Shown here: positions 56,066 to 64,000 of the stretch, piece by piece
Layout of the letters: each line of letters starts with the position of its first letter
How positions within the stretch are numbered: position 1 is the stretch's first letter
Origin: an uncultured Dialister sp.
GTDB lineage: Bacteria > Bacillota > Negativicutes > Veillonellales > Dialisteraceae
Direction: 5' to 3'
NCBI GenBank assembly: GCA_900543455.1
Contig: UQRR01000002.1
Coordinates: 7,228-71,227 of the forward strand
Length of the DNA stretch: 64,000 nucleotides
Position numbers and translations under genes: made by a program
The notes under the pieces: generated by a model
Told to the model about the DNA's origin: nothing
Database searches by the model: none
What the model saw: the letters and a program-made list of their open reading frames with translations, nothing else

Positions 56066-56428
56066 TTACCACTTATCGATCCATTTTTCCAGTTCATCCA
56101 AGGAATCAATGATAGAATCACAAGCCTTTTCCGTGACCGTATAGGCTTTATCTATCGCATCCACCAAGGTATCTGCCGTTTCCGCCAATTTCATCACAGC
56201 AGCTTCCTGCTCCTCTGCTGGCAGCTGCTCTATTTCCTGATCCACATACTCTCCCACCTTGTCTAATAATTGATCCAACATGGATGGCTCTTCCTCTGCC
56301 TGTTTCTCTTCCACCATCTTAGCATAAAACTGCTCTGCCCACTGTTGTAATGCTTGACTCGCCATACCATTCGCATCATCCCTGTTTCCAAATGGAATCT
56401 CAGGAAAATTGTTTCCATTGTCACTCAT
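56066..56428 (-). CDS. small acidic protein (120 aa) carrying its own conserved promoter/terminator cassette
   Basis: pI is very low (E/D-rich). RBS AAGGAGGAGA. No family recognised. Confidence 0.45.
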   Translation of the reverse strand: MSDNGNNFPEIPFGNRDDANGMASQALQQWAEQFYAKMVEEKQAEEEPSMLDQLLDKVGEYVDQEIEQLPAEEQEAAVMKLAETADTLVDAIDKAYTVTEKACDSIIDSLDELEKWIDKW

Positions 56429-56454
56429 CTTATCTCCTCCTTATGAAATACTTT

Positions 56455-56640
56455 TTAGCTGCCTGATCATCAGCTTTTCTTCTAGTATATCCAAGAGGTT
56501 GGACAAGAAATGGGTATGAGACATATTTCTTTGAAAAATTTTGATGAAATAAAAAATGTTGCTAAACATCCGGCACACACCAAACATTCAACAACATTTT
56601 CTGTTATAACCCATAGTGATTAAATATTTCCCCATAAAAT
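56455..56640 (-). promoter_or_regulatory. cassette regulatory module copy 1: terminator hairpin plus conserved promoter/5'UTR block
   Basis: Shares cATACCCATTcTTGTCCA..GGTATACTgGAAGAAAAGCTGAT...CAGCTA.AAA..TATTT..AAGGAGGAGA with 57480-57655 and 59222-59404. Confidence 0.55.
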
Positions 56641-56641
56641 T

Positions 56642-60777: not shown

Positions 60778-60896
60778 TCCTCCTTCAAAAATTCCCCATT
60801 CGTATAATTTTTGTCACTAAAACACGCATGTCATGCCAAGTGGTCAGAAAACTGTTGCTCCCAACAAGCAGCAACAGACACCCATCAATGTCTCTA
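60778..60896 (-). terminator. hairpin plus U-tract downstream of the HerA-like gene, followed by a putative promoter for the downstream operon
   Basis: CUGUUGCUGCUUGUUGGGAGCAACAGUUUUCUG on the minus strand. Confidence 0.4.
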
Positions 60897-63800
60897 TTAG
60901 ATATAAGTATCCTGCTTTATAATCCCACAGGCGTCCATTCCCTCAGCTTCAAAATCCCGCAATACTTCTATTTCTTCTTTCAGATACGATGTGAAGAAAA
61001 TGACCAGCAGTTTTTTCGTCTTAGCTTTTACATAATCAGAATCAGATGTATTGTAGGTATCAAATACCCAATTGACTACTTCGTCTACTGACCACAATCC
61101 TGCAGCATGTACCTGTTTCCACAAGTTCCCATAGGCCGCATTATAACCGCTATTCTTCTTAGCCGTTCGACAATTCCAATATTGCAACATCCGAGCCGGT
61201 ATTTTCTCTATAGCAAATTGTACGGCCTTGCCAATAGTTTCTGCGTCACCTTCCAGTGCTTGCTGCGGAAACGGCAAGAAGGAAAACCGACCTTTTTCCT
61301 GTTCCTGCTGATAGTAATGCATAGCGGCTTCTGTCAATTCTGCGTCTGCCAAAGGTGTCTTTGACGTATCTGTATCGTATCCAATTTTCACTAACACTGC
61401 TTTTTCATAGCCATCAGAGAAAACAACCGCCTGACCAGTAAGTAAACTGGAAAGGAAACGCTTCTGATCATTGTCCAGGGCCATAGTATTTCCTACCGCT
61501 TCCTTATCATCCTGGGCAAAAATGCGATGAATGATTTTGGTATTCGTATTTTTCAAAACGTCTGGAGCCATCTTATTGGGAATCTGGTCCACAATGATGA
61601 GGCTTTCCCCATACTTACGGATTTCCGCTAGCATATCCGAGAAAGTTTCTACCCCCAGTTTCTTATTGAGACCATCTCCCGGCTGCCAGCGGCTCAAGAG
61701 ACGATGAGCTTCTTCCACCAACATGATATGGGCATGTTCCTGTCCATCCTTCGCAAATCGTTCTCGGATAGCTTCATTGAAAGCAGCCAAAATGAATCCC
61801 ATGATGAGTGCCTTTTCATTGCCATTTCGGATATTTTCCAGTTCCAATACTACTTTTTTATCCAACAAACCAGCTATATCGATAGAACGAGGCGTATTCA
61901 ACATAGCACCCTTAGCCCCTAAGATCAAACTTTGGAGCATAGCACGGATGGAACCATTGTATTCATCCCGCAGCCTATCATCAAAGCCTTGCTCTTCCAC
62001 CACATGTTTCACTTCTACCAGCAAATCAGAAATAGTAGGAAATGAATCACATCCTGGTGCATAAGGGTCCTTGTACTTTGTATTGAGCGTGAGATTCACA
62101 TCCCAACCTTTTTTCTCATAGCACCGATACAAAGCTGCTTCGATAAGTTGTGGTTCTGCTGCTTGCATTTCAAAGGCTGCTTCCATGCTGGCTTTGATCA
62201 TATCCACATGAGCATCGATAGATTCTTTCGGCTGCAATTCAAAGGGATTCAGGCGGAATGGGGCTACTTGGTCATTTCCCAAAGTGAAGACCAATAAGTC
62301 CTTACAAGCCGCTTCCTGTTTCAAAATGCGATACTCCGTCTTTGCCGGTTCAATCACCAGGAAAGGCAGCTGGCTCTGCAGCAAAATTCGATGACAAGTG
62401 GTAGTCTTTCCACTACCCGTAACACCTGCCACAAAAACATGTTTATCTAAACTATCCTTATCCAGATAGACCGGCAATGTCTCGACTTCCACCCCATCCT
62501 GAAGCAGATTGCCCAAATCAATACAATCCTCTTTCTCTGGTTTTTCATAATTCAAACCAAATTCCACTTGTTCCCGGAGCTTCATACCGATGACTTCTCG
62601 TTGGGGAAGTCCTGCGATAAGGGCCAGTTCATTGGTAGAAATCCAATTACTCAAAGGCGAAATCCCATCCACTCTCACATCTTGTGACAAGAAAGCACGC
62701 TCTTTTCTCTGGTCTGTAGGTACTTTCCCTTCTGGGATAAGGAAATTCTTCATGCAGGTTCTTTGTGGATTGTACTCATTGATTCGGATCGCTTCCAAAG
62801 GCACTCTATTCCCTGCCTTTCCGGAATAGAGGGCCAGTGCTGTATTTTCCAACCGTTGCTGACATAAAGGATTATCAGACATCACATAGAAAGCAGACAT
62901 ATAGAGCCCTTTGCCTCGGCCATAGTCCAACCGTGGAAATAGGACTTCGTCACAATATTTGAGCCACTCCTGAGCACACTTATTGAGATATTCTTGGGTA
63001 TAGGATTCAGATATTCCTTGGGAAGTTCCCTCTGAAGAACCTTCACTATAAGAGTGTCCTTGGCTGTGACTACTTCCGGTCTGCTGAGAAGTGCTAGATC
63101 CTTCCGACTGATTAAAAGAGTGCCCATCTGTATGACTGGCTGTATTCCCCTTAGTATCTGTATCTGAAGAACCTTCTGACCCATTTTCCGAAGTGTTATA
63201 TTCAGAAGATCCATGAGATGTTGCCTTTCCAGTGCTTGTGCTCTTGGCATGACTATGACTATCGCTCGTCCCACGAGTATCACTTACGTTTGTACCATGA
63301 GATTCACTGCGATTTTCTCCAGTCGAAGTGCTTGTACTGGTAGACTCATTCTGATTGGTGCCTTTATTTATTGATTGACTCTGGCTATTACTTTCATTCT
63401 GTCCATGCTGCACAGAGTACTTGCTATAAGTACTCAGCATAGAATAGGCTTCCTGCAAATTCTTTTCGATAGATGCAATCCGTTCCTGATCCATAGATTC
63501 TGCCACAATAAGCACGCAGAAAGGACTGCCCCGCATGACATCCACCAAGCGATCTACTCCTTGAAACTCTTCTCCATCTTTGATAGCACCAGCCACACCT
63601 TCGATACGAGCAGCGTATTTCATTTTCCGCATGCTGCGAAGGACATTGTCTTTTTCAATCACTCCCAATTCATCTACCTGACAGCCCCGGAAATTGCCTT
63701 TTAAACTGGCCTGCAATACATGGCTTCCTAAACTAGGGATATTAGCCCCGTTCTCATCAGGGCGAGCACGAGATAAGCCGTAATAAAACTTCACCCCCTC

Positions 63801-64000
63801 AGGACTCCCCATGATGAGGTACAGAAAATTGATGCCCGGCATACGTACCGCGCTCAGCATATTTTCCAAAGCTTCCTTACGAGGCGCTTCATCGCTATCA
63901 TCAAAGGTGATTTTCTTCACCTGATATAAGATGATATCTTGATCCTTGAAATCTTCCTCTTTGATAGGCATCACTTTCACATTCGGATCTTTCGTCAGAT
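60897..64000 (-). CDS. large HerA/FtsK-like P-loop ATPase with an uncharacterised N-terminal domain and an S/T/G/N-rich disordered linker; 5' end runs off the window
   Basis: Walker A HVFVAGVTGSGKTTT followed by ...LVIEPAKTEY (HerA-like DPHGEY context), Walker B/DExx-like HIMLVEEAHRLL, and an arginine-finger-like region. The N-terminal ~200 aa precede about 150 aa of STSTSTGENRSESHG low complexity. The frame stays open to coordinate 64000. Confidence 0.65.
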   Translation of the reverse strand, partial: LTKDPNVKVMPIKEEDFKDQDIILYQVKKITFDDSDEAPRKEALENMLSAVRMPGINFLYLIMGSPEGVKFYYGLSRARPDENGANIPSLGSHVLQASLKGNFRGCQVDELGVIEKDNVLRSMRKMKYAARIEGVAGAIKDGEEFQGVDRLVDVMRGSPFCVLIVAESMDQERIASIEKNLQEAYSMLSTYSKYSVQHGQNESNSQSQSINKGTNQNESTSTSTSTGENRSESHGTNVSDTRGTSDSHSHAKSTSTGKATSHGSSEYNTSENGSEGSSDTDTKGNTASHTDGHSFNQSEGSSTSQQTGSSHSQGHSYSEGSSEGTSQGISESYTQEYLNKCAQEWLKYCDEVLFPRLDYGRGKGLYMSAFYVMSDNPLCQQRLENTALALYSGKAGNRVPLEAIRINEYNPQRTCMKNFLIPEGKVPTDQRKERAFLSQDVRVDGISPLSNWISTNELALIAGLPQREVIGMKLREQVEFGLNYEKPEKEDCIDLGNLLQDGVEVETLPVYLDKDSLDKHVFVAGVTGSGKTTTCHRILLQSQLPFLVIEPAKTEYRILKQEAACKDLLVFTLGNDQVAPFRLNPFELQPKESIDAHVDMIKASMEAAFEMQAAEPQLIEAALYRCYEKKGWDVNLTLNTKYKDPYAPGCDSFPTISDLLVEVKHVVEEQGFDDRLRDEYNGSIRAMLQSLILGAKGAMLNTPRSIDIAGLLDKKVVLELENIRNGNEKALIMGFILAAFNEAIRERFAKDGQEHAHIMLVEEAHRLLSRWQPGDGLNKKLGVETFSDMLAEIRKYGESLIIVDQIPNKMAPDVLKNTNTKIIHRIFAQDDKEAVGNTMALDNDQKRFLSSLLTGQAVVFSDGYEKAVLVKIGYDTDTSKTPLADAELTEAAMHYYQQEQEKGRFSFLPFPQQALEGDAETIGKAVQFAIEKIPARMLQYWNCRTAKKNSGYNAAYGNLWKQVHAAGLWSVDEVVNWVFDTYNTSDSDYVKAKTKKLLVIFFTSYLKEEIEVLRDFEAEGMDACGIIKQDTYI

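Follow-up and report, generated by a model that had tools for sequence, protein, structure and literature searches.

A VirB4-like ATPase and its conserved partners in a low-GC island of an uncultured Dialister: a candidate conflict module

A low-GC island encoding a large ATPase, a small membrane protein and single-gene cassettes

The sequence analysed, referred to here as the window, is a stretch of 64 000 nucleotides from contig UQRR01000002.1 of an uncultured Dialister sp. (assembly GCA_900543455.1). Its last part, positions 56066 to 64000, is an island of low guanine-plus-cytosine (GC) content: each 1-kb bin from 56001 to 64000 lies at 0.36–0.45, against values that are mostly 0.50–0.59 across the rest of the window. 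The island runs on past the window edge at 64000. A first-pass annotation, made from the sequence alone, had described such an island, and both the composition (36–45% GC) and the gene content were found as stated there. According to the list of open reading frames (ORFs), every gene of the island is carried by the minus strand. The order of transcription is a large VirB4-like ATPase, a 236-residue membrane protein, a 204-residue protein, a Sel1-repeat protein, a predicted nuclease of the PBECR4 family and an acidic 120-residue protein (Table 1). The first three of these are the last three genes of a module that is widespread and essentially uncharacterised, one of its sub-modules having been noticed computationally before.

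The ATPase is a predicted structural homologue of VirB4

The reading frame of the ATPase is open up to the window edge, with no in-frame stop, and ~23 codons are missing when it is compared with P0001, a 99% identical protein of 1056 residues. The window contains a 5′-truncated version of this full-length protein. Its assignment to the HerA/FtsK superfamily was likewise borne out when the protein was scanned against the Pfam profiles, by a match to DUF87/HerA (E = 5e-7) and by intact Walker A and Walker B motifs; in the alignment of 62 homologues, residues E785, E786 and H788 of the latter (P0001 numbering) are invariant. Neither AAA_10 nor CagE_TrbE_VirB gave a Pfam match at E ≤ 0.1. The best NCBIfam match was NF033849 (ser_rich_anae_1; E = 8e-42), with a score of 143 bits against a cut-off of 650, and the DNA-translocating ATPase CedD was matched with E = 4e-25.

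An AlphaFold2 model of the full ATPase was obtained from a 62-sequence alignment, with a predicted local distance difference test score (pLDDT) of 73. It comprises an N-terminal domain in two halves (residues 10–222 and 356–500) separated by a Ser/Thr-rich region (223–355), an ATPase domain (515–900) and a C-terminal helical domain (908–1041). When this model was compared with the PDB using Foldseek, the top match was full-length TrwK/VirB4 of the R388 type IV secretion system (T4SS; 7o42_A, E = 2.5e-11), followed by the C-terminal domain of Thermoanaerobacter VirB4 (4ag6, template-modelling score 0.66), the C-terminal domain of DndH (0.61) and HerA (0.45). Far below VirB4, at ranks 44–50, came TrwB and Cag-beta, which are coupling proteins. 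EccE of the type VII secretion system (T7SS) was among the best matches of the N-terminal domain. An N-terminal VirB4-type domain joined to a RecA-like C-terminal ATPase domain is the architecture of VirB4 itself, and the model thus predicts that the ATPase is a structural homologue of VirB4 over its full length, N-terminal and ATPase domains alike, rather than a coupling protein or a HerA of the classical type. Membership of the curated VirB4/TraC/CagE families is not reached at the sequence level (NCBIfam VirB4_plasma, 35.9 bits against a cut-off of 590). Nor are there signs of a type IV coupling protein (T4CP): no transmembrane anchor or other hydrophobic segment was found (Kyte-Doolittle maximum 1.3), and TrwB_AAD_bind matched with E = 0.02 over 30 residues only.

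Two features of the first-pass annotation were revised by the structure prediction. The N-terminal domain described there as unknown resolves as a VirB4/EccE-type domain, and the stretch described as a linker is an insertion within that domain. Its reported richness in Ser, Thr, Gly and Asn was correct (28, 14, 12 and 8%, respectively). In the model the insertion has a pLDDT below 50, with short predicted beta-strands. An equivalent insertion of 61–415 residues is present in all 84 homologues of at least 900 residues, the richest 80 residues being 31–62% Ser plus Thr.

The superfamily assignment raises the alternative of an abortive infection system working strictly in the manner of Sir2-HerA or DUF4297-HerA, with a HerA ring activating a glycine-zipper pore former. 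PADLOC models of HerA do match the protein, with E values down to 2e-16, HerA structures from defence complexes are among the significant Foldseek matches, and the membrane protein is the ATPase's invariable partner. The PADLOC matches, however, align solely to residues ~708–876 (the last ~110–160 residues of the ATPase core), and the scores for NCBIfam HerA_antiphage (44.9 bits against 800) and HerA_antiphage_2 (21 against 850) are far from the cut-offs. No adjacent Sir2 or DUF4297 gene was found in the window or the extended locus, and three further proteins normally present (the Hsp70-like, coiled-coil and 170-residue proteins described below) have no counterpart in HerA systems. This alternative is consequently regarded as improbable.

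The membrane protein and its 204-residue partner

The spacer between the ATPase gene and that of the membrane protein measures 125 nucleotides here, against 0–40 in most homologous loci. Within it, a short hairpin (GTTGCTGC...GAGCAAC) precedes TTTTC, and this may be an attenuator or a terminator inside the operon. Translation of the membrane protein was taken to start at the second ATG of a 238-residue ORF, which is at the right distance from an AGGAGG sequence and agrees with protein P0121.

The first ~70 residues of the resulting 236-residue protein are uncharged, hydrophobic and rich in Gly, Ala, Ser, Thr and Ile, with a Kyte-Doolittle maximum of 1.91 over residues 1–24; an uncharged hydrophobic N-terminal region is kept in 85 of the 94 members of the family. 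This agrees with one part of the first-pass description, a GxxxG glycine zipper, in that the N-terminus is indeed hydrophobic and rich in small residues, but the first 70 residues contain just one strict GxxxG, together with 11 small-xxx-small motifs. The remainder of the protein is a helical soluble domain with the strongly conserved motif EELG.KA..KKPEDFDS..EYI.YLR. The protein matched nothing in Pfam (against which the family alignment was also scanned), PADLOC or NCBIfam, and showed no sequence match to known families of pore formers. The sole PDB profile match of the family, to a designed coiled coil, was judged spurious. A copy with 70% identity is labelled Dialister sp.

The gene for the 204-residue protein begins 14 nucleotides past the stop codon of the membrane-protein gene. 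Both genes are closely and widely linked to that of the ATPase. No Pfam, PADLOC or NCBIfam model covers the 204-residue protein; it is matched (E = 8e-8) by a hidden Markov model (HMM) of a ~170-residue family built from 43 loci.

A variant arrangement was seen in Vibrionaceae and in one Alteromonadaceae genome (loci L026, L027, L035, L036, L052, L062, L077 and L086), where two paralogues of the membrane protein flank the ATPase. Some of these versions also have two tandem Hsp70-like genes.

The ATPase is widespread and keeps a conserved set of partners

Relatives of the ATPase were sought by a pattern and tblastn scan with one genome per species, and at least 477 species proved to have one, among them Vibrio, Campylobacter, Helicobacter and numerous Firmicutes of the gut. 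The 80 loci kept come from Firmicutes (Clostridia, Negativicutes and Bacilli), Campylobacterota (Campylobacter, Helicobacter, Sulfurovum and Arcobacter), Gammaproteobacteria (Vibrio, Photobacterium, Aliivibrio, Shewanella and others), Fusobacteria, Kiritimatiellae, Lentisphaerae, Verrucomicrobiota, a Bacteroidota, Actinobacteria (an Eggerthellaceae) and Desulfobacterota; about ten phylum-level groups are represented among the ATPase loci. Identity to the window protein was 40–53% in the kept loci, with one exception of 83%. When the first 193 residues of the ATPase were compared with 1.84 billion proteins, 342 clusters (50% identity) were recovered, 140 of them at E ≤ 1e-10, and all but one of the 150 best-listed clusters matched within ~100 residues of the N-terminus. 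Phage genomes rendered only two partial, weak matches to the ATPase, which is therefore not considered a phage gene; PHROGs gave only weak or uninformative matches for the island proteins.

The neighbourhood was analysed in 86 loci, all of whose ORFs were scanned with iterated HMMs of the window-type proteins and subjected to all-against-all clustering of neighbours. The ATPase and the 236-residue family were each conserved in 81 of the 86, the latter directly after the former. The ~170-residue family, to which the window's 204-residue protein belongs, followed the membrane protein in 62 loci. Other partners varied in position: an Hsp70-like protein (66 loci), a coiled-coil protein (57), a WYL regulator (20) and an LRAT protein (11). 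Gene order shifts among clades while the gene set is retained; in Vibrionaceae, for example, it runs WYL, Hsp70-like protein, membrane protein, ATPase, membrane protein, 170-residue protein, coiled-coil protein. The conserved system thus consists of the coiled-coil protein, the Hsp70-like protein, the VirB4-like ATPase, the membrane protein and the 170-residue protein, often with WYL.

These results bear on two reservations expressed in the first-pass annotation. One was that homologues might show no conserved linkage with the neighbouring genes; the ATPase, the membrane protein and the 204-residue protein proved to be conserved neighbours. The other was that the ATPase might be a coupling protein of an integrative and conjugative element (ICE) with transfer genes just beyond the window. 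It is not of the VirD4/TraG type, and the genes past the window edge are those for WYL, LRAT, Zn-ribbon, coiled-coil and Hsp70-like proteins rather than for transfer. Relaxase, T4CP, VirB6 and VirB8 were all missing from the conserved set and from the 25 commonest Pfam families among 126 flanking proteins of 60 loci, and no other T4SS family was among those 25 either.

That the locus is the remnant of a decayed conjugative element (an ICE or plasmid T4SS), with the ATPase as that element's VirB4, is suggested by VirB4 being the top structural match, by the presence of homologues on two mobilisable megaplasmids, and by a tRNA-linked integrase lying 4 kb away. Yet the same non-T4SS partners recur across some ten phylum-level groups, in 57–81 of the 86 loci, which is not a pattern of decay. 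The sequence models of true VirB4 proteins are not satisfied, the catalytic motifs are invariant, and the integrase is part of another element, from which the locus is divided by three core genes. We therefore give this explanation hardly any credence.

Among the same 126 flanking proteins the commonest families were MMR_HSR1 (6 members), Dynamin_N (5) and DUF697 (3). By size and position they look like large GTPases that lie, on either strand, just downstream of the coiled-coil gene in Vibrionaceae (L027, L036, L062, L077 and L086, at ~15–19 kb), and they may constitute an adjacent, separate system.

The Hsp70-like gene is missing from about 15 loci, in eight of which (L022, L024, L034, L039, L066, L068, L083 and L084) the ATPase/membrane-protein pair lies amid shared clusters of neighbours, which in the representatives L066 and L084 were assigned by Pfam to VWA, PP2C phosphatase, Ser/Thr kinases, a CARF protein (Cas_NE0113) and an Upf1-like helicase. 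A Photobacterium damselae plasmid carries a 1247-residue DUF2357 (McrC N-domain) protein, the ATPase and a 213-residue hypothetical protein, by its position a candidate counterpart of the membrane protein; Csm6 follows ~3.5 kb further on. Such surroundings are those of type III-A CoCoNuT/TerY-P operons. An Acinetobacter plasmid has the stand-alone form, with a WYL gene directly upstream of the ATPase.

Genes beyond the window edge and their variation among strains

The full locus was read from human-gut metagenome contigs that carry the same genes at 87–100% identity. Upstream of the 1056-residue ATPase gene the order is WYL/helix-turn-helix regulator, [LRAT-type NlpC/P60 protein and coiled-coil protein], a 69-residue Cys-rich/Zn-ribbon protein, a 280-residue coiled-coil protein and a 1036-residue Hsp70-like protein. 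Downstream, it is followed by the 236- and 204-residue proteins, Sel1, [PBECR4], the acidic 120-residue protein, [a 320-residue protein and a tubulin/FtsZ-like protein], two DUF445 genes, alr and mreBCD; the genes in brackets differ among strains. The WYL regulator matches PADLOC WYL models labelled as CRISPR-Cas-associated signalling.

Assignment of the 1036-residue protein, which contains IGIDFGTKST and FDFGGGTSDFD, required a profile: as a single sequence it matched nothing in the PDB, whereas a profile of 15 homologues matched solely the nucleotide-binding domains of Hsp70, DnaK and BiP (best E = 6e-4). The characteristic motifs of this domain could be aligned, namely GIDFGT (phosphate-1), EPAAYA (NEPTAAA-like), FDFGGGT (phosphate-2) and GD.LGGE, and are invariant in the 15 sequences. 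The Pfam HSP70 model is not reached by the family (one of 15 members, E = 1e-3). An N-terminal region of ~370 residues lies outside the recognised Hsp70 domain. In two of 10 strain-level contigs (L088 and L089, positions 3569–6681) the gene is split into two ORFs, of 580 and 464 residues and of 473 and 503 residues, which reflects either decay in some strains or an assembly error.

In some strains the LRAT-type NlpC/P60 protein (157 residues; Pfam LRAT, E = 9e-26) and a coiled-coil paralogue are inserted between the WYL and Zn-ribbon genes (L003, 1889–2948; L087, 904–2251); they are absent from L004–L006. A second pair appears in some strains between the gene for the acidic 120-residue protein and DUF445 (L004, 13890–15746; L087, 13768–15708), and consists of a 320-residue protein with no family match and a GTPase of the tubulin/FtsZ family of 223–225 residues (Pfam Tubulin, E = 6e-22). 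When the full locus was checked with PADLOC, as the first-pass annotation had proposed, no model covered the partner proteins: the membrane, 170-residue, Hsp70-like and coiled-coil families have no PADLOC or Pfam model. NCBIfam, scanned for the 236- and 204-residue partners, has none for these two either.

The combination of an Hsp70-like chaperone, a ring ATPase and a small hydrophobic protein would also suit an accessory envelope or proteostasis module with no conflict role, for instance one that extracts or inserts small hydrophobic proteins during membrane stress, and the neighbours here are indeed related to the envelope (two DUF445, alr and mreBCD). Such neighbours are not conserved elsewhere. 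The patchy, horizontal spread of the module across phyla at 40–53% identity, the variability of the low-GC island among strains, and the WYL, TerY-P, CARF and CoCoNuT contexts all point in another direction, making this account very improbable.

The downstream cassettes and the boundary of the island

The three genes that follow the 204-residue protein are punctuated by a repeated junction, composed of a hairpin terminator, a promoter (AAATATTTCCCATACCCATTCCTTGTCC (N17) TATACT; –35 TTGTCC, –10 TATACT), a short 5′ untranslated region (5′UTR) and the ribosome-binding site (RBS) AAGGAGGAG. The window has exactly three copies of it, against an expectation of none by chance. The statement that each cassette has the same promoter, 5′UTR and terminator thus holds in so far as three copies exist, but not for PBECR4. 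The second copy is degenerate and is followed by ~240 nucleotides with no ORF (57250–57500) and by a terminator-like hairpin (57267–57301) only ~15 nucleotides before the PBECR4 RBS, for which reason the promoter arrangement of this gene is regarded as unlike that of the other two. A good sigma-70-like promoter match (TTGACA N17 TATTCT, 57489–57461) lies between the second junction and PBECR4. To judge by its sequence, the non-coding segment looks like the scar of a lost cassette.

The 201-residue protein, earlier called possibly nuclease-like, is a predicted nuclease of the PBECR4 family (Barnase/EndoU/colicin-E5/RelE-like). It scored 91.3 bits against a Pfam gathering cut-off of 27, with residues 5–182 aligned to positions 1–177 of the 188-position profile. 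The acidic 120-residue protein gave no family match above noise in Pfam, PADLOC, NCBIfam or PHROGs. Of the 86 loci, eight have Sel1, but six of these eight belong to strain-level relatives; PBECR4 was found in three, as was the acidic gene, and the acidic gene is also annotated in four later strain loci (L087–L090). Among strains, PBECR4 is present, absent or truncated, and cassettes, including the pair of 320-residue and tubulin-like proteins, are gained and lost at the junctions. The cassettes are absent from almost all loci other than those of related strains, and so do not belong to the conserved system, contrary to what the first-pass annotation had supposed; their lack of conservation also ruled out that they are the effector and immunity parts of the machine. 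Rather, Sel1, PBECR4 and the acidic protein form a strain-level variable array, independently promoted and recombining, appended to the system, and no functional tie between them and the ATPase is seen. The presence of Sel1 repeats with a basic nuclease and an acidic protein is suggestive of accessory genes that act in toxin/immunity or against invaders.

The nature of these cassettes is relevant to the main rival explanation of the locus, a minimal machine for secretion or nucleic-acid transfer. In such a device the ring, seated on the small membrane protein, would drive export or import, the Hsp70-like protein would unfold or deliver the substrate, and the cassettes would be cargo and immunity genes. 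The top structural matches of the ATPase (VirB4 of the T4SS for both domains, EccE of the T7SS for the N-terminal domain) and its match to CedD are in keeping with this, and Bell et al. (PMC11090510) weighed secretion or mobilisation for the same ATPase. PBECR4 is moreover a toxin-type nuclease domain, the Sel1 and acidic proteins are immunity-like, and the LRAT/NlpC-P60 protein recurs in 11 of the 86 loci. On the other hand, no polytopic channel protein, signal-bearing cargo, WXG100 protein, relaxase, VirB6, VirB8 or VirD4 is conserved alongside the ATPase; the presumed cargo and immunity cassettes are confined to the closest strains; a delivery domain is lacking in PBECR4; and the WYL and TerY-P/CARF/CoCoNuT contexts are typical of intracellular defence. 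A transfer device is therefore thought unlikely.

Past the acidic gene (position 56066) come the two DUF445 genes, which mark the core-genome boundary of the island, and then the alanine racemase gene (alr), all of them core genes. Further on, in a bin with a GC content of 0.41–0.44, a tRNA-Arg(CCG) gene (51943–52018, minus strand) adjoins ORFs of 362 residues (50707–51795, plus strand) and 307 residues (49440–50363, plus strand), the counterparts of which in the co-linear contig L089 are annotated as Phage_integrase and Abi_2. This integrase/Abi_2-like region (~49.4–52.0 kb) looks like a separate integrated element, lying across alr and the other core genes from the island.

Table 1. Positions of genes and other features of the island within the 64 000-nucleotide window
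Feature	Position	Strand	Basis or remark
VirB4-like (HerA/FtsK-superfamily) ATPase	60897..64000	-	ORF and P0001; 5′-truncated by window edge, full length 1056 residues
VirB4/EccE-type N-terminal domain, two halves divided by the Ser/Thr-rich insertion	62541..63980	-	
Ser/Thr/Gly/Asn-rich insertion, ~133 residues, within the N-terminal domain	63003..63401	-	Composition
Walker A, GVTGSGKTT	62400..62426	-	No variation among 62 aligned homologues; pattern present in 79 of the 84 homologues taken from loci
Walker B, MLVEEAH	61704..61724	-	hhhhEEAH pattern in 81 of 88 ORFs
Spacer between ATPase and membrane-protein genes, 125 nucleotides, weak hairpin	60772..60896	-	Sequence
Small-residue-rich membrane protein ('GlyZip'), 236 residues	60061..60771	-	ORF, start matched to P0121
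204-residue protein, divergent member of the ~170-residue family	59432..60046	-	ORF, family HMM
Junction copy 1: hairpin terminator and promoter, 5′UTR and RBS upstream of Sel1	59208..59431	-	
Sel1-repeat protein, 492 residues, accessory cassette	57729..59207	-	Pfam Sel1, E = 3e-39
Junction copy 2: strong hairpin terminator (57613–57656), degenerate –10, no ORF directly downstream	57490..57728	-	
PBECR4-family predicted nuclease, 201 residues, isoelectric point 9.5, accessory cassette	56642..57247	-	Pfam PF18813, E = 1e-25
Junction copy 3: hairpin terminator (56553–56600) and promoter, 5′UTR and RBS upstream of the acidic gene	56429..56641	-	
Acidic protein, 120 residues, isoelectric point 4.05, accessory cassette	56066..56428	-	ORF
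Two tandem DUF445 paralogues, 412 and 417 residues, between island and alr	53392-55961		

A possible role in conflict

With somewhat better than an even chance of being right, we read the region as the 3′ half of a multi-gene module that spreads horizontally, to which three strain-specific single-gene cassettes are appended. The module would be a conflict system, probably directed against phages or plasmids, with a mechanism that is inferred. The module itself probably serves in defence. Three lines of observation lead to this reading: (i) the patchy distribution across phyla, the low GC content, the variability among strains and the pseudogenisation of the Hsp70-like gene in some of them; (ii) WYL control and the wiring to TerY-P, CARF and CoCoNuT operons; and (iii) the matches to MADS, DRT, AriA, CARF/Csx1 and viperin found in the immediate flanks of stand-alone loci.

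In a conflict system of this kind, the WYL repressor would hold the operon off until stress arises. By analogy with VirB4, the ATPase would form a ring, docked on the membrane via the small membrane protein in a VirB3-like role; alternatively or additionally, the ring would load or extract the hydrophobic hairpin of the small protein, as VirB4 is thought to handle pilin. The Hsp70-like protein and the coiled-coil protein would act as a sensor or remodelling partner, and the output would be one of two: the small protein would perturb the membrane, leading to abortive infection, or nucleic acid entering the cell would be intercepted at the membrane. The Ser/Thr-rich loop could plausibly serve as a surface for regulation and, in loci of the CoCoNuT/TerY-P type, as a substrate of the kinase and phosphatase.

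Several points weigh against a conflict role. The flanks of the stand-alone loci are heterogeneous and include many metabolic or regulatory genes, and among the genes conserved in stand-alone loci no nuclease, NADase or further effector of a classical kind could be recognised. When the Hsp70-like protein was compared by hhalign with a single DUF2357 protein of CoCoNuT, which is a weak test, no similarity was detectable. A pore-forming or anchoring role for the membrane protein is suggested only by its hydrophobicity and by analogy with VirB3/VirB2, and the apparent closeness of the ATPase to VirB4 would also fit transport. No experimental test of any component was found in the searchable literature.

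A more specific version of the conflict reading, possible though rather doubtful, is that a VirB4-type motor has been domesticated together with the Hsp70-like ATPase and the coiled-coil protein, giving an immune machine that stands alone, is regulated by WYL and docks on the membrane, and that this is a new class of defence. It would sense infection and then either set off a small hydrophobic effector or keep nucleic acid from entering at the membrane, with the hypervariable Ser/Thr-rich loop as a (phospho-)regulated switch. If true, such a switch would explain why the motor is wired to pairs of Ser/Thr kinase and PP2C in CoCoNuT/TerY-P operons, and the new class would be present in hundreds of species. 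Were the module to act in defence, its logic would be unusual, since two unrelated ATP-driven machines, one VirB4-like and the other Hsp70-like, would operate alongside a small membrane protein, and an effector of the classical nuclease or NADase type would be missing. With four of its families covered by no Pfam or PADLOC model, current tools for defence annotation would overlook such a system.

Comparison with known systems

Among NCBIfam families, that of ser_rich_anae_1 (NF033849) is the nearest; its alignment spans the ATPase domain of the window protein, but the score is under the cut-off, indicating a related but distinct family, and the model itself holds no functional information. VirB4/TrwK, the nearest structural relative, has a sequence identity to the window ATPase of merely 8–18%. 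It differs in that the window family adds the Ser/Thr-rich insertion (61–415 residues) and the C-terminal helical domain, and in that no further T4SS genes lie near ATPase loci of the window type. With Sir2-HerA (Nezha) and DUF4297-HerA, the ATPase shares the P-loop superfamily, its core being matched both by HerA models of PADLOC and by HerA structures that have been solved. The coupling of a ring motor to an effector is a further idea that the modules have in common. The N-terminal domain is of another type, however, and the Hsp70-like and coiled-coil components are additional.

Hsp70-type domains have been placed outside chaperoning before, in conflict-type operons with coiled-coil proteins, namely in CnuD/CnuCD of type III CoCoNuT and in the systems of Kaur et al. 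2020 (PMC7159879); in this the window locus resembles them. Its Hsp70-like protein keeps invariant phosphate-binding motifs, whereas those of CnuD are described as degenerate, and its profile shows no detectable similarity to DUF2357 (hhalign, again a weak single-sequence test). The DO-GTPase-tubulin-Hsp70 systems of Kaur et al. were weighed on account of the tubulin cassette seen in some strains and of the dynamin-like GTPases close to Vibrionaceae loci. Identity with them was rejected, no GAP1 or DO-GTPase core being linked to the module.

A literature search for a named system joining a VirB4-like or HerA ATPase with Hsp70 gave only the CoCoNuT paper of Bell et al. 2024 (eLife 13:RP94800, PMC11090510, section 10). 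It describes an add-on of EccE3-HerA plus a small helical protein in a CoCoNuT context, and suggests a mobilisation or secretion role for that ATPase. Here, too, one operon combines a VirB4-like ATPase domain and a small helical protein. The genes that embed it in type III-A CoCoNuT (VWA duplication, CnuB/CnuC and CnuH) were found neither in the window locus nor in its strain relatives, but homologous loci that do have them were identified (L066, L084 and L091). On architecture and context, we regard the ATPase and the 236-residue protein as the putative EccE3-HerA module of Bell et al., an identity of family that is not accession-based, since the supplement of PMC11090510 has no EccE3, HerA or VirB4 entries. 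For the stand-alone form, in which Hsp70-like, coiled-coil and WYL genes are present, no description was found in the searchable literature, which is limited, and a prior one may exist. The first-pass view that the combination was undescribed needs correcting for the pair of ATPase and small protein, which is not wholly so.

The two forms can thus be set side by side. Homologues of the window ATPase sit, as in CoCoNuT, amid VWA, PP2C, kinase, CARF and Upf1-like genes or after DUF2357. The window version, in contrast, stands alone and has no McrB/McrC, VWA, kinase or HEPN genes. It belongs to the stand-alone form with an Hsp70-like gene, which is the majority (66 of 86 loci), and has an Hsp70-like ATPase, a coiled-coil protein, a 170–204-residue protein, a Zn-ribbon protein and a WYL regulator of its own.

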